In this document: positions 32,845 through 38,048 of the stretch, piece by piece | Layout: each line of letters starts with the position of its first letter | Numbering within the stretch: the stretch's first letter is position 1 | From: Dehalococcoidia bacterium | GTDB lineage: Bacteria; Chloroflexota; Dehalococcoidia; Lucifugimonadales; UBA1123 | NCBI GenBank assembly: GCA_963664365.1 | Contig: OY761144.1 | Coordinates: 1,513,596-1,577,595 of the forward strand | DNA length: 64,000 nt | Direction of reading: 5' to 3' | Translations under genes and position numbers: made by a program | Notes under the pieces: model-generated | What the model was told of the DNA's origin: nothing | The model's input: only the letters and a program-made list of their open reading frames with translations | Databases searched by the model: none

Positions 32845-33020
32845 TTCTCAACCCCCGTGTGTATCGGTTCCGCCTATACTATTCCCCGACCATTTGGCTC
32901 GGACGCGAACGAAGACCGACGGCCTCCAACCCGCCTCCGACTCGCCGCTATTGTACCCCAGCCAAGCCATCCGTTCAACGCTCCTGCACAATCCAGAGCC
33001 TGTGTCAGTTCTGTGGGTCC

Positions 33021-33214
33021 CCCTGGGAGCGCGGGCGTCCCGCCTGCATCCAACCCCCTCCCTCTGTCATCCCGACCGCCCCCTACTGTCATTTCGAGCG
33101 CAGCGAGAAATCTAAAATCCCCGAACATCCTCCAACCCAATCAGCGAAATCACCCCATCCCCAAACTCCCACTTCATACAACCCTTAGCGCCCCTTAGTG
33201 CCCCGTGGACAACC
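33021..33214 (+). repeat. composite structured intergenic repeat, copy 1 (GGGAGCGCGGGCGTCC ... TGTCATTTCGAGCGCAGCGAGAAATCTAAAATCC ... CCAACCCAATCAGCGAAATCACCCCA ... CCCTTAGCG..GTGGAC)
   Basis: Long blocks identical with 34474-34634. Confidence 0.8.
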
Positions 33215-33276
33215 TATATCCACCAACCAACCCCATCCTGAATATCCCCCAATCCCGTAAATCCTGCTTCTACCCC

Positions 33277-33322
33277 TTGACACCAGCCCAAAGACCATGT
33301 ATTCTAAACAGAACTGTCGTAC
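33277..33322 (+). promoter_or_regulatory. promoter TTGACA-17 nt-TATTCT followed by a LexA-like box GAACTGTCGTAC
   Basis: Hexamers at 33277-33282 and 33300-33305. The box at 33311-33322 has one mismatch to GAAC-N4-GTTC. Confidence 0.45.
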
Positions 33323-33358
33323 ACCCACTATCCACTAACCACTAACCACTATCCACCA

Positions 33359-34255
33359 ATGACCACCACAACACAACAGACACCATCTAACCCGGCCCTC
33401 GACTTCGCCAACGCCATCCGCGAGGAAACCGACAACGGTCTCGAACTCATCGAGATCCTACACGACATCGCCCAAGGCAACGACCCGAAGGCCACCGCCA
33501 ACGACCGCATCACTGCCGCCAACATCCTCGCCGACAGAGGATTCGGCAAATGCCCCAGGCAAATCGACCCCAATCCGGCCCCAACCCCCAAATCCGACGC
33601 CAACGACGTAGGGGCGATTCGCGAATCGCCCTCGGTGCCCGCCGCCAACCCCAGGCCCGTAACCCAAATCAAAGACTCCCTAGACCAGGCCCTCGGCCCG
33701 GCCCCAACTACCCACTCGCCACAATCTACTAACCACTATTCACAATCCACCATCCACTTCACCATCCAACAACACATCATCGAAATCACCAACAACGGAC
33801 AGACCATCCGAGACACCCTAAAAGAAATAGCCCGGGCCAAAGACGACCCGAAAGTCACGCCCTACCACCGCGCAAGAGCCGCGCGTATCCTGCTCGACCG
33901 TCTCCTCGGAACCGACAGTGCCCTCGAAAAGAGGACCAAACCCTACGTCCGCCCGGTCAGACACATCGACCCCGACGACCTGGCCGAATTCCGCGCCAAG
34001 CTCCAGCGAATGGAGGACGAGGGCACACTCACACCCTACCCGGACGGTCGCAGAGACAACATAACCGTGCCTGAGATACCCGAATGGTTCGACCCGACCC
34101 CCTACCTGGACGAAGCTTCCGAAAAGTTCGAGGCCGACATCAAGATGCGGCTCGAACGACAGAAGGCATGGCCCGCCATCGAAGAACGAAGGCGGAAGAA
34201 ACTCGCCAAAATCTACCCCTCTCACTCCGAAGACGGCAAACCGCCGGACCCATAA
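33359..34255 (+). CDS. hypothetical protein with an internally duplicated helical motif (...DR(I/A)xAAxILxDRxxG...)
   Basis: 298 aa. The repeats NGLELIEILHDIAQGNDPKATANDRITAANILADRGFGK and NGQTIRDTLKEIARAKDDPKVTPYHRARAARILLDRLLGT are separated by a Pro-rich linker. The motif is reminiscent of small phage DNA-binding or terminase-small-subunit-like proteins. Confidence 0.55.
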   Translation: MTTTTQQTPSNPALDFANAIREETDNGLELIEILHDIAQGNDPKATANDRITAANILADRGFGKCPRQIDPNPAPTPKSDANDVGAIRESPSVPAANPRPVTQIKDSLDQALGPAPTTHSPQSTNHYSQSTIHFTIQQHIIEITNNGQTIRDTLKEIARAKDDPKVTPYHRARAARILLDRLLGTDSALEKRTKPYVRPVRHIDPDDLAEFRAKLQRMEDEGTLTPYPDGRRDNITVPEIPEWFDPTPYLDEASEKFEADIKMRLERQKAWPAIEERRRKKLAKIYPSHSEDGKPPDP

Positions 34256-34257
34256 CC

Positions 34258-34467
34258 ATGACGACCTCCGAAAACATCCTATCCGAAATCATCGACGAGT
34301 TGAGGCCACTCCCGCACGCCCAGCGTGCGGCCCTTGCTCGCGTCTATCGCCGGACACTCGACGAAGATGATTGCCTCAGGCTCCTACACGCATGGGAACT
34401 CCACGCCCTAGTCCACGCCGTCACAGAGCTTATGATCCGCCGAATCCCCCTAAAAATCTGGGTCTAA
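34258..34467 (+). CDS. small hypothetical protein
   Basis: 69 aa (MTTSENILSEIIDELRPLPHAQRAAL...). The ATG lies 2 nt after the upstream stop codon. Confidence 0.4.
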   Translation: MTTSENILSEIIDELRPLPHAQRAALARVYRRTLDEDDCLRLLHAWELHALVHAVTELMIRRIPLKIWV

Positions 34468-34473
34468 CCACCC

Positions 34474-34634
34474 TTGGGAGCGCGGGCGTCCCACCGGCGC
34501 CCCCTGTCATTTCGAGCGCAGCGAGAAATCTAAAATCCCTGAACATCCTCCAACCCAATCAGCGAAATCACCCCAATCACAAAAATCACAGTCAGACAAC
34601 CCTTAGCGCTCCTTCGTGTCCTTCGTGGATAGCG
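34474..34634 (+). repeat. composite structured intergenic repeat, copy 2
   Basis: Same blocks as 33021-33214. It ends in CCTTCGTGTCCTTCGTGGAT. Confidence 0.8.
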
Positions 34635-34702
34635 CCTCTACGCTAAAAACCGAAAACTAGAAACTAAAAACCATCCACTAACCACTATCCACTGCCCACC
34701 CC

Positions 34703-34757
34703 TTGACAAGCGTTCTCTCAATGTGTGAACATGAGTTCACGCGAAGAACGAGAGTTC
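34703..34757 (+). promoter_or_regulatory. promoter -35 TTGACA plus two Gram-positive-type LexA boxes (GAACATGAGTTC and GAACGAGAGTTC)
   Basis: TTGACA at 34703-34708. Perfect GAAC-N4-GTTC palindromes at 34727-34738 and 34746-34757. The SD AGGAGA and the ATG at 34777 follow. Confidence 0.7.
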
Positions 34758-34776
34758 CCGAATTAGGAGAGACAAC

Positions 34777-36123
34777 ATGCTCATCAAGAAATCGCCCGAC
34801 GCCTACGACAAGCTAAGGATACTCGGAGGAATGGCCTCCGACGACATTCTATCGCCCCCCGAAAGGCCCGGCGACCGAGGCGGCCCATATCCCGCCGCCA
34901 AGAAGAATCCCAACTACGGCGTCTATCGAGCCTCCATGCCCAACGGCAAGTTCATAAACCTGATGCGCGTCATGTTCACCGACTTCTGCAAGATGGACTG
35001 CGCCTACTGCCCAAACAGCCACTGGGTCCCTAGAAAGCGATACGCCTTCAAGGTGGACGAACTCGCCCAGACCTTCATGGAACTTCACAGAAGGCAGACC
35101 GTCAGCGGACTGTTCCTCAGTTCGGGCATAGCGGGCGACGGCTCCAAGACCACCGAACGACTCGTCAAGGTCGTGGACGCCATCCGAAACAAGCACGGAT
35201 TCAAGGGATACATCCACATGAAGGTGATGCCCGGCGCGGAGTACCAGTACGTTGAAGCCGCGCACCGACTCGGCACGCGCCTATCGGTCAACATCGAGAC
35301 ACCGACCAAACTCCACATGGACAAGCTCAGCGCCATGAAGGACTTCCAGAAGGACATCCTCGACCCCATGGCGTGGATTCACAAGCTCACCGAGGAGAGC
35401 AGCGGCGGCGCCGTCGGACAGGCCACGCAGCTTGTCGTCGGCGCGGCTGACGAGACCGACCGCGACATCTTCGGACGCATGGACCAACTCTACTCCGAGT
35501 GGAAGCTCAAGCGGGTCTATTACGCGCCCTTCCGCCCCGTCCGGTACACGCCCCTCGAAGAGCATCCCGCGACCCCCATGACAAGGAGCCACAGGCTCTA
35601 CCAGATGGACTGGCTCAAGCGAGTGTACAGGTTCTCGAACGATGAACTCGATCTCGCTTTCGGCGCGGACGACCATCTACCCCTCGACCTCGACCCCAAG
35701 ACCTCCATCGCCGTCGAAAACCTCGACGCCTTCCCAATGGACATAAACGGCGTCTCCTACGAGACGCTGCTCAGAATCCCCGGCGTCGGCCCCAAGTCCG
35801 CGCAGCGAATCGTCCGAAACAGGCGCGCCCACGCCATAGACACCTGGAGAGACCTCCAGACCATGGGCGTCGTCCGAAAGCGAGCATGGCCCTTCATCGC
35901 CTTCCCCGGACACCGACCTCCCAGGGCCAAGCAGCTAAGGCTCGACCTCTTCGGCCAAGACGCCAGAGAGCGCCGACTCGCCCAAGCCCCCGAACCCGCC
36001 GCGCAGACGGCCCCATGCGGCGAAGAAAGATCCTGCGTCGGATGCCCGATGTTCGGTATGCCCGGCCATCCCGGCGACCCCAATGCCGGACTCGGCGCAA
36101 CCCCGTTGCCGCCCGCCGCGTGA
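34777..36123 (+). CDS. putative DNA modification/repair radical SAM protein (TIGR03916-like) with C-terminal helix-hairpin-helix
   Basis: 448 aa. CKMDCAYC (Cx3Cx2C), GLFLSSG, GYIHMKVMPGA, RLSVNIETP, and LLRIPGVGPKSAQRIV. Confidence 0.85.
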   Translation: MLIKKSPDAYDKLRILGGMASDDILSPPERPGDRGGPYPAAKKNPNYGVYRASMPNGKFINLMRVMFTDFCKMDCAYCPNSHWVPRKRYAFKVDELAQTFMELHRRQTVSGLFLSSGIAGDGSKTTERLVKVVDAIRNKHGFKGYIHMKVMPGAEYQYVEAAHRLGTRLSVNIETPTKLHMDKLSAMKDFQKDILDPMAWIHKLTEESSGGAVGQATQLVVGAADETDRDIFGRMDQLYSEWKLKRVYYAPFRPVRYTPLEEHPATPMTRSHRLYQMDWLKRVYRFSNDELDLAFGADDHLPLDLDPKTSIAVENLDAFPMDINGVSYETLLRIPGVGPKSAQRIVRNRRAHAIDTWRDLQTMGVVRKRAWPFIAFPGHRPPRAKQLRLDLFGQDARERRLAQAPEPAAQTAPCGEERSCVGCPMFGMPGHPGDPNAGLGATPLPPAA

Positions 36124-36340
36124 ACTCGACACGCCAACTACCGTCACTCCGGCGAAGAGCCTGCCCCGTACCCGATACGGGGCCGGAGTCCAGAAGGGCA
36201 GGGGGATGGAGGCTCGGCCGCCGCGTGAACTCGACACGCCAACTACCGTCACTCCGGCGAAGAGCCTGCCCCGTACCCGATACGGGGCCGGAGTCCAGAA
36301 GGGCAGGGGGATGGAGGCTCGGCCGCCGCGTGAACTCCGC
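36113..36340 (+). repeat. 105-bp tandem repeat, 2.2 copies, with nested hairpins
   Basis: CGCGTGAAC recurs at 36117, 36222 and 36327. The unit contains ACTCCGGC...GCCGGAGT enclosing CCCCGTA-CCCGA-TACGGGG. Confidence 0.9.
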
Positions 36341-36375
36341 GCCCCTGATGCTGTATCATTGACAAGGCAAAAGCC

Positions 36376-36411
36376 CCCTCTCCCTCAAGGGAGAGGGCTA
36401 GGGTGAGGGTG
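36376..36411 (+). repeat. hairpin CCCTCTCCCT/AGGGAGAGGG followed by CTAGGGTGAGGGTG (repeat family, copy 1)
   Basis: The same element occurs at 48708-48748 (+) and 46142-46180 (-). Confidence 0.8.
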
Positions 36412-36512
36412 AAAACTCGCCGTACCGATCTCTGACACTGGACGCCGGATCACAACCTTGGCGAATCCTTAGCGTCCTTCGTGGACACACAACCGACAAA
36501 GGACAAAACCCA

Positions 36513-36866
36513 ATGACAACCACAGCCGACACCCTCCAATTCCGAGGCGTCCTCGCCATCCCCGGCGAGAACGACCGCCGCGACGTCACCCTCACCCTCG
36601 CCGACGGCTCCCACTCAGCCACCCTTCACTTCGACGAGCCCGTCGCAGGCTCCGACGAGTGGCGAGGACAAAACGTCATAGTCTTGGACAGGCCCAAGTA
36701 CCAAGAGATCCAGTTCGCCACGTTCGACCTGCCCAAAGACACCGTCCAACTAACCTGGAAACTCAACAGGTCCAAGCTGGACAACACCATCGCCGGAGTA
36801 GTCGTCGCCCGCCCCAACGCCGTCAGAGTCAGAGGCGAAAAAGGCTTCATCCTGACCCAAGTCTAA
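36513..36866 (+). CDS. hypothetical protein
   Basis: 117 aa with a beta-rich composition. No motif recognised. Confidence 0.5.
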   Translation: MTTTADTLQFRGVLAIPGENDRRDVTLTLADGSHSATLHFDEPVAGSDEWRGQNVIVLDRPKYQEIQFATFDLPKDTVQLTWKLNRSKLDNTIAGVVVARPNAVRVRGEKGFILTQV

Positions 36867-36880
36867 AGACCCCGTCCCGC

Positions 36881-37351
36881 TCAGGACCGCTGTTGCTTCT
36901 CGAAGTTCTCCACGATCCTCCGCGCGACGCTGATGAAAACCTCCATGTCATCCTCGCTGATGCCCTCAGTCAGCTCTTCCTCGATCTCCGCCCTGATCTG
37001 CTCCAGCTTGGGCACCAGGTCCAATCCGTCTTCGGTCAGTGTCAACCGGACTATGCGCCGGTCGCTGGACAGCCGCTGCCTCTGGAGCAGGCCCTTCGTC
37101 ACCAGTTGGTCCACCTGCCGGCTCATAGAGGGCCCGCCGATCGGGATAATCTGCGCCAGGTCGGTCACCGTATCCGCCTCGCCGATGAAGCAACGGTGAA
37201 GGATTGCGAACTGGACCGGAGTGATCTCGTAGCCCGAAATCCTCTTGTTTAGATCGAACGTAGAGGCGTTGGCAAGATTGGTTCCCCAATGCCCTAGGGA
37301 GCGATCGACAGCCTCAGCAGATGGACGGAATCGAGTCTGGGGTTCTTCCAT
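36881..37351 (-). CDS. MarR-family transcriptional regulator
   Basis: Winged-helix region ITPVQFAILHRC...TDLAQIIPIGGPSMSRQVDQLVTKGLLQRQRLSSDRRIVRLTLTEDG. Start set at the ATG at 37349-37351, after GAGAGGGG. The 246-aa track ORF is an upstream extension. Confidence 0.8.
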   Translation of the reverse strand: MEEPQTRFRPSAEAVDRSLGHWGTNLANASTFDLNKRISGYEITPVQFAILHRCFIGEADTVTDLAQIIPIGGPSMSRQVDQLVTKGLLQRQRLSSDRRIVRLTLTEDGLDLVPKLEQIRAEIEEELTEGISEDDMEVFISVARRIVENFEKQQRS

Positions 37352-37447
37352 GATCATCACCCCTCTCTCTATATGAGAACTAAGGACAACAAGGACAAGC
37401 CGATGTGCTTCGCCATGAGAAAGCCCCCTTACGGTCAGGTCGCGTTT

Positions 37448-37561
37448 GCCAATCACGCATCCTTCCCTGCATAGGGCCGCTCGGGGGCGCAGAACGCGCC
37501 CCGAAACCCCGTCCCCAGCGCTCGCGCTGAGGCCGAGTCCCATGCAGAGGTGGTGATTGGC
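37448..37561. other. 114-nt nested stem structure closed by a 9-bp inverted repeat (GCCAATCAC / GTGATTGGC)
   Basis: Closing stem 37448-37456 / 37553-37561. Inner stem CTGCAT/ATGCAG. Hairpins GGGGCGC-AGAAC-GCGCCCC (37484-37502) and CAGCG-CTCG-CGCTG (37516-37529). Confidence 0.35.
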
Positions 37562-37795
37562 GAGACATACAAAACCATAATCGAAACTATTTGTCAACGG
37601 CATCAACCTCCCTAAATCCACCGCCTAATTGCCGGGCGCCCGCGCTCCCGGCTTTCACGCCCACCCAATCCTGAAAATCCTCCAATCCCATAAATCCTGC
37701 TTCTGACCTCTTGACATCCGCACAAACATTCCTTACACTAACTAACGTACATCCGTCTGCCAACCACTAAAAACCAAAAACTAAAAACTAACAAA

Positions 37796-37825
37796 TTGAC
37801 ACCCCCGAAAGCGGCGCCCTAGAAT
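37796..37825 (+). promoter_or_regulatory. promoter TTGACA-18 nt-TAGAAT with an A-rich UP-like tract, facing alaS
   Basis: Hexamers at 37796-37801 and 37820-37825, preceded by AAAAACCAAAAACTAAAAACTAACAAA. A second TTGACA-17 nt-TACACT lies at 37711-37739. Confidence 0.5.
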
Positions 37826-38048
37826 CTGGCTATGCGGATCGTCTTCCACACGAGCGTGGCGCGCTCTTCATCGCCACACAGTCTTTCCCAATGGGAGGAG
37901 CGCTTGCGGGCGGGTTCGTCTATGACGAACTCCCGCCTTGTGGCGGCGTGATCTCCCAGATATGCAGCCGGGCCGACGCCCGCTGTCCCCCGTTTACTCA
38001 CATCGTTCCCTTGGCGCATTGCGTCACCGATACCCATGAAACCGAGAG

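Follow-up and report, generated by a model that had tools for sequence, protein, structure and literature searches.

Background

As a rule, terminase genes occur once, as part of a virus or of a gene transfer agent (GTA). In the terS-terL modules of pac-type tailed phages and of GTAs, the gene for a small DNA-binding subunit is followed by one for a large subunit with Terminase_6N and Terminase_6C domains, and in phage satellites such as the Staphylococcus aureus pathogenicity islands and phage-inducible chromosomal islands (SaPI/PICI) a TerS gene is kept without TerL, its product being a specificity subunit that exploits a motor supplied in trans. Here we examine a module of two open reading frames (ORFs), ORF1 and ORF2, in a 64,000-nt stretch of the genome of a Dehalococcoidia bacterium (contig OY761144.1, positions 1,513,596 to 1,577,595; hereafter the window). 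We posit, with a probability that we put at roughly 0.6, that the module is a worn copy of a mobile terminase cassette, which has inherited an SOS-type promoter and encodes a TerS-like protein that would recruit the large subunit, TerL, in trans.

The gene pair behind this module resembles the phage and GTA modules in gene order, in the overlap of the two genes by 4 nt (10 of 12 intact pairs), in the roughly 50% identity of its TerL to phage TerLs, and in the portal gene that follows the ancestral copy in relatives. Unlike those modules, it is detached from structural genes and occurs in dozens of copies, its small subunit has grown by the duplication of a module and by a new C-terminal part, and its large subunit is usually deleted. 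With the SaPI/PICI satellites it shares the retention of a TerS-like gene without TerL, a plausibly SOS-linked control and the expected use of a trans-supplied motor; it differs from them in that the elements, of 1.3-1.8 or 2.9-4.5 kb, are devoid of integrase, replication and capsid-remodelling genes, number about 70, and have terminal inverted repeats (TIRs) or other repeats instead of att sites, while the helper would be a presumed one. A further point of comparison is offered by mobile insertion cassettes (MICs), transporter insertion sequences (tISs) and MITEs (miniature transposable elements with inverted repeats), as defined in PMC3129680. The cassettes described here likewise include TIR-bounded units without a recognizable transposase, with passenger genes and target duplications of fixed length, and short MITEs share their ends; in contrast to those classes, what is carried is a phage packaging module under an SOS-type promoter of its own, none of the genome's transposases could be identified as cognate, and many copies have no TIRs and have seemingly been spread or rearranged via mosaic repeats. 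Finally, the promoter recalls LexA regulons with the Gram-positive-type box GAAC-N4-GTTC in its GAAC half-site, 4-nt spacer, position over the transcription start and offset, which is that of the lexA box; it differs in the second half-site, which is GTAC, though this form is common at orthologues of the neighboring radical SAM gene in the genus, and recA has GTAT. The parts are of known kinds (terS-terL modules, transposase-less TIR cassettes and Gram-positive-type LexA boxes), whereas the combination of a TIR-captured packaging module, about 70 intact TerS-like genes, mostly decayed TerL genes and element-type promoters on host genes was not found described: no account of terminase-bearing transposons, of terminase cassettes in multiple copies or of GTAs in Dehalococcoidia emerged from the literature searched.

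The TerS-like gene and the large-terminase remnant

A first-pass annotation, made from the letters of the window, had called the module (Table 1) an uncharacterized pair of genes: an ORF of 298 aa with two copies of a DR-type motif and a resemblance to small phage DNA-binding or small-terminase proteins, followed closely by a second ORF of 69 aa. ORF1 indeed contains two helix-loop-helix modules (about residues 12-61 and 130-182) with a Pro-rich low-complexity linker between them, followed by a conserved helical C-terminal region; the duplication and the linker were thus correctly recognized, although the second motif begins with HR rather than DR (HR..AARILLDRLLG). The assignment of ORF1 as a small-terminase-like (TerS-like) gene draws on position and comparison. 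In each of the genome's 12 intact pairs the ORF1 paralogue directly precedes TerL, whose start lies 4 nt before the ORF1 stop in 10 of them, and in the window the spacing from ORF1 to the TerL stump is that of the intact pairs. Moreover, ORF1 residues 20-64 are 41-47% identical to an ORF of about 100 aa located upstream of the terL-portal genes in two other genomes of the genus (G013 and G018), and the core of that ORF, ETDDGL..V.FLV..M.....DRLAAARELLDRGFGKP, which is found in G042 too, aligns with ORF1 residues 20-66. With this match and with 12 paralogues preceding an intact TerL, both the phage origin and the small-terminase resemblance suggested in the first-pass annotation are borne out. 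Weak PHROG matches were obtained for phrog_7407 (best 1.9e-9; 45 of 47 family members) and for phrog_10899, annotated as a terminase small subunit (2.8e-5 at best in the family, 1e-3 for ORF1); no similarity to ORF1 was seen in the ORF that precedes TerL in the Microcystis phage Mae-JY09. The protein is predicted to bind DNA and to recruit TerL.

ORF1 also has the coding signal to be expected of a gene: it is under purifying selection, with ratios of nonsynonymous to synonymous substitution (dN/dS) of 0.14-0.36 against its nine closest paralogues. The linker and C-terminal regions diverge fast, and dN/dS reaches 0.5-0.6 between distant pairs. The family is narrow, with 180 clusters at 50% identity among 1.8 billion representatives; in the 90% collection it comprises 922 proteins (E <= 1e-3), all from ENA metagenome assemblies.

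The intact TerL paralogues clarify the nature of ORF2. They are proteins of 444 aa with Terminase_6N (8e-23) and Terminase_6C (1e-17) domains and unbroken Walker A and B motifs, and they match terminase-large-subunit PHROGs. Their identity is about 50% to annotated phage TerLs and 54-64% to those encoded in other genomes of the genus. ORF2 corresponds to TerL residues 1-52 (from codon 3) fused in frame to residues 425-444, codons 53-424 having been deleted at a junction with a 6-nt microhomology, ACGCCC. Both of its ends align to TerL paralogues at 58-85% identity, and in tblastn searches its residues 1-50 and 50-69 match sites separated, in other copies, by about 1.1 kb. Both Walker motifs, A near residue 72 (GRGFGKT) and B near residue 164 (WCDE), fall within the missing part; Terminase_6C spans residues 285-431 of an intact paralogue, and of the C-terminal part only the last 20 or so TerL residues remain in the window. 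ORF2 has neither the ATPase nor the RNase-H-like nuclease domain. Comparison with the paralogues thus identifies ORF2 as a deletion remnant of a TerL gene. A tightly spaced ORF is present as had been stated, albeit from 34258 and not 34259, but it is not a gene in its own right, and there is no two-gene operon of unknown function. The window copy as a whole has kept its left repeat, its promoter and an intact ORF1, whereas its right end and the greater part of TerL are gone.

Table 1. Features of the cassette in the window, head genes elsewhere in the genome and classes of related elements (coordinates without prefix are window positions; those prefixed C1 are genomic)
Feature	Position	Strand	Length	Remarks
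Left terminal inverted repeat, diverged, GAGCCTGTGTCAGTTCTGTGGGT	32996-33018	+		Hit of the TIR scan; genome 1546595 = window 33000
Mosaic of short C-rich modules GGGAGCGCGGGCG, CTGTCATTTCGAGCGCAGCGAGAAATC, AATCAGCGAAATCACC, CCCGTAAATCCTGCTTCT	33020-33271	+		
Sigma-70-type promoter, TTGACA-17-TATTCT	33277-33305	+		-35 at 33277-33282, -10 at 33300-33305
LexA-type box GAACTGTCGTAC	33311-33322	+		5 nt past -10; 34 nt from start of -35
C/A-rich 5' leader of CCACTAW heptamers	33323-33358	+	36 nt	No Shine-Dalgarno sequence
ORF1, TerS-like, intact	33359-34255	+	298 aa	
ORF2, large-terminase remnant	34258-34467	+	69 aa	2 nt after ORF1 stop
Second set of repeat modules with CCACTAW heptamers	34471-34702	+		Reaches -35 of the radical SAM promoter
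Portal gene	C1:159586-160770			Single gene in the genome
Prohead-protease-like gene	C1:172599-173216			
Major capsid gene	C1:173338-174855			
Connector-like gene	C1:174930-175745			
TIR-bounded elements with ORF1 and TerL			2.9-4.5 kb	
TIR-bounded elements with ORF1 alone			1.3-1.8 kb	
TIR-bounded elements with the 95-aa gene			0.75-0.87 kb	
MITEs with the same TIRs	e.g. C1:2182252-2182358, 1415053-1415159, 1729996-1730125; window 36376-36411		about 106-130 bp	

Copies of the cassette and their mobility

Searches of the 3.396-Mb genome with tblastn recovered 46 intact close paralogues of ORF1 (subfamily 1; 39-98% identity), along with a few fragments, and a distant subfamily of about 20 intact genes with 25-36% identity over the first 190 residues. 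In all, the cassette family amounts to about 70 copies and 1.9% of the genome. TerL is intact beside 12 of the 46 close copies, reduced to a stub beside 13 and without trace beside 21. The ORF1 reading frame, for its part, is open at 46/46 subfamily-1 loci and at 20/22 of the distant paralogues, across identities of 25-98%. For the intact TerL copies the median dN/dS is 0.27, so that purifying selection acts on ORF1 and on those TerL copies that survive. Three TerL copies are 99-100% identical, which points to recent spread, and segments of the promoter are the same in copies with up to 35% difference between their ORF1 proteins, a sign of gene conversion or mosaic recombination. Other species of the genus (G001, G002, G005 and G008) have multi-copy cassettes of their own, with a divergent TerS-like gene of 375-418 aa that likewise contains the motif twice; behind it, several of these copies have a TerL, either intact or truncated. 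The distant subfamily of the present genome (324-350 aa, with a Cys-rich C-terminal part; e.g. C1 32390-33382, 1163854-1164837 and 3062020-3062997) never adjoins TerL; its start codon lies 8 nt past an extended -10, TGCAATACT, and its mRNAs are therefore probably leaderless.

The near-identical full-length copies share a block that runs from GAGCCTGTGTCACTTTAGTAGGC to GCCTACCAAACTGACACAGCTTC, which are inverted repeats of about 23 bp. The pattern derived from them, GA-NN-CTGTGTCA-N-TTT-R-GTAGGC, describes about 150 TIR ends across the genome, and these bound four kinds of cargo (Table 1). Target duplications of 9 bp accompany many of the TIR-bounded elements, MITEs included, and perfect ones flank two ORF1 elements, C1:1848035-1851133 (TTCTTGCAT) and C1:1446638-1448250 (TGGGAGGGT). 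For the former, a 3.1-kb element whose only ORFs are ORF1 and TerL, the empty site is preserved: the joined flanks form one continuous stretch both in G017, the closest relative (1.35 kb at 80% identity), and in G008. Hence, for some of its copies, the cassette has moved by transposition in this lineage. Both TIRs were found at 9 of the 69 cassettes scanned, including C1:718831-722753 and C1:1848035-1851133, most cassettes being without one or both. For the window copy the upstream TIR alone was found, the right one being absent from where it was expected.

The regions upstream of the promoters are mosaics of repeat modules, and the cassettes do not constitute a simple insertion sequence (IS) family. 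In the window the repeat blocks recur on both sides of the module (33020-33047 matches 34471-34498, and 33072-33203 matches 34490-34621 at 85%), which agrees with the claim in the first-pass annotation that the module and the adjacent radical SAM gene share an upstream repeat architecture. In other copies the modules form tandem arrays of units of about 150 nt upstream of the promoter, as in the copy at C1:720347 with 8.4 units at 98% identity.

The only transposases found in the genome are IS630-like (7 copies), IS110 (6), IS66 (3) and IS1182/IS5-like (2). IS630, IS110 and IS66 were ruled out as mobilizers by the length of their target duplications or by their ends; Transposase_mut and IS1595 are absent from the genome, and DDE_Tnp_1 occurs only in the IS1182/IS5-like element. 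The latter has termini similar to those of the cassettes, GAGGCTGTCTCA, and was rejected as the cognate transposase by its 4-bp duplication.

Descent from a phage-derived gene cluster

TerL was found in 30/30 genomes of the genus searched. In 5 of the 6 inspected for it, one TerL copy is followed by a portal gene with 68-73% identity to the local portal; this portal-linked gene is the sole TerL copy in G041, G013, G018 and G042, and the ORF of about 100 aa precedes it in G013, G018 and G042. The present genome has a single-copy set of head genes (C1:157413-175745) near gyrA, in which a methyltransferase/restriction-like island splits the cluster. The portal is at most 10 kb from gyrA in G013 too, and in G018 the matching capsid genes are about 10 kb from the portal. 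At the local portal locus an IS110 element stands in place of terS-terL, and no TerL match was obtained there. As judged from this comparison, the cassette descends from a phage-derived terS-terL-portal cluster, whose local representative has lost terS-terL. If the head genes are still used, the cassettes would hold the only TerL genes available to them, which would explain the selection on TerL. A kinship of the local portal with the portals of those phages that have the most similar TerL was considered and dropped, the identity being 21% over part of the length. The cluster of G018 includes an ImmA-like/HTH regulator pair.

The promoter and its LexA-type box

The promoter, the box GAACTGTCGTAC and the C/A-rich leader without a Shine-Dalgarno sequence all lie where the first-pass annotation had placed them. 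The promoter scores 10/12 and is one of two promoter-like sites within 4.5 kb, and its 29-nt segment is identical in 16 cassette copies. The leader, whose CCACTAW heptamers differ in number among copies, has no match in Rfam, nor have the repeats; the coding strand is strongly C- and A-rich (GC skew to -0.5, AT skew to +0.4).

The box differs by one mismatch from GAAC-N4-GTTC, its second half-site being GTAC. It is one of three GAAC-N4-GTWC sites in the window, the other two being the radical SAM operators, and the window has 5 strand-matches against 3.8 expected, which is not above chance; genome-wide, GAAC-N4-GTAC is not enriched either (84 observed against 86 expected). It is the placement of the box, rather than the count of sites, that is informative. 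Among those 84 sites, 37 lie at most 48 nt downstream of a TTGACR hexamer, and GAAC-N4-GT[AGC]C occurs at a fixed offset in 24 of 45 subfamily-1 promoters, against 0.06 in shuffled sequences, the copies not being independent of one another. The offset from the start of the -35 is 34 nt in 18 copies and 30 nt in 6, in two unrelated promoter types.

LexA is encoded just beyond the window and RecA elsewhere in the genome. The lexA promoter reads TAAGAT-N5-GAACGTTAGTGC, with its box at the same offset as that of ORF1. Perfect GAAC-N4-GTTC boxes number 29 in the genome and occur on the radical SAM promoter and on a multi-copy family of genes for a 95-aa protein, in whose promoter the box CGAACCGCCGTTCC lies between the -35 and the -10. 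Among relatives, the radical SAM orthologues carry GAACATATGTAC, GAACGTATGTAC or GAACATATGTAT, commonly GAAC-N4-GTAC or GTAT, and recA of most species has GAACAAATGTAT over its -35; GAAC-N4-GTAC, GTAT and GTGC are the forms found at the radical SAM orthologues, recA and lexA in the genus. The promoters of the canonical terS have a box just past the -10 in three of four relatives inspected: GAACAAATGTAC in G042, TATTCT-N8-GAACATTAGTGC in G018 and AAACATATGTTC in G041. Since the promoters of the ancestral cluster carry LexA-type boxes in the same place, control by LexA is plausible, and in GAACTGTCGTAC we probably see a LexA operator, inherited and of moderate strength. The LexA-like operator proposed in the first-pass annotation thus gains from the fixed position of the box and from variants of the same form across the genus, and loses from the half-site that is off consensus.

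Proposed function and competing explanations

We infer that the promoter is of the ancestral terS type, with a LexA operator past the -10, and that DNA damage would switch ORF1 on, the gene being translated from an unstructured C/A-rich leader. The TerS-like protein would bind DNA at or near its own cassette, perhaps at the repeat arrays, and would recruit TerL in trans, either from the 12 intact copies or from a helper phage. Copies without TerL may then persist as non-autonomous specificity modules, like phage satellites with TerS alone, and could act as seeds from which chromosomal DNA is cleaved and packaged at many sites. Whereas such genes are ordinarily present once, the specificity subunit here stands at about 70 copies in a small genome; selection has kept it intact, it carries an SOS-type promoter, and some copies have transposed. 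If a terminase is indeed still recruited, a mobile element would have here a novel means of passing on both itself and the adjoining host DNA from cell to cell in an abundant uncultivated lineage, and there would be a concrete, testable route of gene flow in Dehalococcoidia. A bolder version is conceivable, and we advance it as a tentative one: the dispersed TerS-like genes, drawing on TerL of the 12 intact copies, would form an SOS-triggered network of packaging-initiation sites that makes the whole chromosome a substrate for the single-copy head genes conserved in the genus or for a helper phage, as in a transposon-spread, GTA-like or lateral-transduction system, or else the terminase pair would act as a transposase. 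In the network version each cassette would promote the transfer of itself and its neighborhood.

Several observations weigh against the reading of the module as a terminase cassette under SOS control. Neither ORF1 nor ORF2 has a significant match in Pfam or NCBIfam, and no curated TerS family fits ORF1. Its AlphaFold model is of low confidence, with a mean predicted local distance difference test (pLDDT) score of 58 and about 75-85 in the helical hairpins; the top Foldseek match of this model among viral structures is a TerS, but at an insignificant E = 0.18, a profile of the ORF1 alignment had 0 matches to PDB sequences at E <= 10, and pattern scans for relatives returned one weak locus in the genome contigs and none in IMG/VR viral contigs. 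As to control, the GTAC half-site of GAACTGTCGTAC is non-consensus and its spacer G+C-rich, and about half of the paralogous promoters are without a box, as is the leaderless distant subfamily. As to mobility, both TIRs together with a perfect duplication occur in only 2 of about 69 cassettes; no transposase found in the genome combines matching ends with a 9-bp duplication; and the cassettes of G008 are without CTGTGTCA-type TIRs, their flanks being different, e.g. a tandem array of AAGATTCGTTCGTGGTGAGCCC. Given that the G008 cassettes have no such TIRs and that most local ones have no full set, transposition can account for only part of the spread of the family. The particle that would receive the DNA, moreover, is putative.

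The lack of a canonical transposase with matching ends and a 9-bp duplication lends some appeal to the proposal that the terminase pair is itself the transposition machinery, with the RNase-H-like nuclease of TerL, targeted by the TerS-like protein, cutting and joining the TIR ends of a new kind of insertion sequence; the ORF1-only copies, the elements with the 95-aa gene and the MITEs would be its non-autonomous derivatives. ORF1 and TerL are indeed the sole ORFs in the TIR- and duplication-bounded 3.1-kb element with an empty site, the TerL copies are intact, under purifying selection and in three cases 99-100% identical, and other species of the genus likewise have cassettes of a TerS-like gene and TerL in multiple copies. 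If this were true, it would define a new class of transposase. We nevertheless consider both the proposal and the derivation of the smaller elements from it unlikely: TerL, at about 50% identity to phage packaging TerLs and 54-64% to those of the genus, portal-linked ones included, gives no hint of a new activity; terminase nucleases are, to our knowledge, hydrolases and not strand-transferases; the TIRs are absent from the G008 cassettes and from most local ones; and the IS1182/IS5-like element has nearly the same 12 terminal bases, which suggests a conventional DDE transposase family, possibly now lost, as the mobilizer. Only slightly better are the prospects of the view, which we also rate as rather improbable, that the ORF1 paralogues are DNA-binding proteins, domesticated or selfish, serving as decoys against phage packaging in defense or as repressors or architectural proteins on the repeat arrays and promoters. 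Such a role would suit the retention of an intact ORF1 at every locus while TerL decays, the roughly 20 intact distant paralogues that never occur with TerL and have a different, Cys-rich C-terminal part, the rapid divergence of the linker and C-terminal regions (dN/dS 0.5-0.6) and the element-type promoters that drive host genes such as recA. Yet the 4-nt overlap, together with the purifying selection seen in 12 TerL copies, speaks for a pair that is still acting jointly, and SOS-type control fits the timing of phage or packaging functions at least equally well.

That the cassettes are decaying junk, with a functionless ORF1 kept open merely through recent amplification and gene conversion, would account for the decay of TerL in 34 of 46 copies and for the identical promoter segments next to ORF1 genes that differ by up to 35%; it is very unlikely in view of open frames at 46/46 subfamily-1 and 20/22 distant loci at 25-98% identity, of dN/dS values well below 1 and of a family maintained across the 922 metagenomic proteins. 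Least credible of all, and contradicted by the data, is a LexA-controlled two-gene operon related to repair that would act with the radical SAM gene (TIGR03916-like), in line with the first-pass annotation, in which the two were seen as a co-regulated set. The LexA-type box on the promoter, the two perfect boxes of the radical SAM gene and the presence of other cassette copies beside recA and near lexA speak for it. However, ORF2 is evidently a TerL remnant, at least 46 paralogous copies occupy unrelated loci, and the two genes show neither consistent co-occurrence nor a conserved linkage: the radical SAM gene is single-copy and present in 29/30 genomes of the genus, whereas the ORF1 family is patchy, being strongly present in only 3, and alaS, not the module, lies upstream of the radical SAM gene in relatives.

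Neighboring genes and other repeated elements

In relatives the gene upstream of the radical SAM gene is the divergently transcribed alaS or another gene, and the -35 of the radical SAM promoter marks the exact point where homology of these relatives to the window begins. The module thus sits at a rearrangement breakpoint, and its adjacency to the radical SAM gene is a consequence of that rearrangement. The segment comprising the radical SAM gene, an ORF at 36513-36866 and marR (34703-38048) is inverted relative to alaS in comparison with G017 and G041, with one of its breakpoints at that -35, beside the cassette repeats. No synteny of the left neighbor, a DUF1800 gene, with the radical SAM gene was found in relatives, for which reason no empty site can be demonstrated for the window copy.

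The recA gene (C1:2666800-2667290) lies directly downstream of another cassette and has a cassette-type promoter, TTGACACCAGCCCAAAGACCATCTATTCT with GAACAACAGTCT, one base off that of ORF1. In 26 of 28 other genomes of the genus inspected, recA has GAAC-N4-GTAT or a close variant overlapping its -35, which indicates that the native recA promoter has here been replaced. On the most conservative reading of the cassettes, these elements have rewired host regulation, as seen in the element-type recA promoter, and mark rearrangement breakpoints.

The IS1182/IS5-like element is 1.77 kb long, encodes a 480-aa transposase and occurs at C1:2939522-2941295 and about C1:3196480-3198254, with a fragment at 1928393-1928791. 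It sits in a MITE hairpin with the 4-bp duplication TGAG, and its first 12 bases are close to the cassette TIRs. A sister type of MITE has the end GAACCTGTCCCGGATTAGTAGGCG and a hairpin of CCCTCTCCCTTGAGGGAGAGGG followed by TTAGGGTGAGGGTGA. The gene for the 95-aa protein (MLDPEV/IKSLLSEFDK...) has about 18 copies, e.g. C1 655825-656446, 2264604-2265443 and 2687492-2688359, of which at least two lie between TIRs of the cassette family, in elements of 0.84-0.87 kb; the protein has weak matches to RFX and Pox_D5-like DNA-binding domains. A further small unit, repeated about 8 times (e.g. C1 1503689, 809216 and 2391758), consists of a promoter, CCCCTTGACACGAACATGGGTACTCGCTATCAT, with a GAAC-N4-GTAC box between its -35 and -10, and a short ORF that begins MSTQIDSTLNRS.

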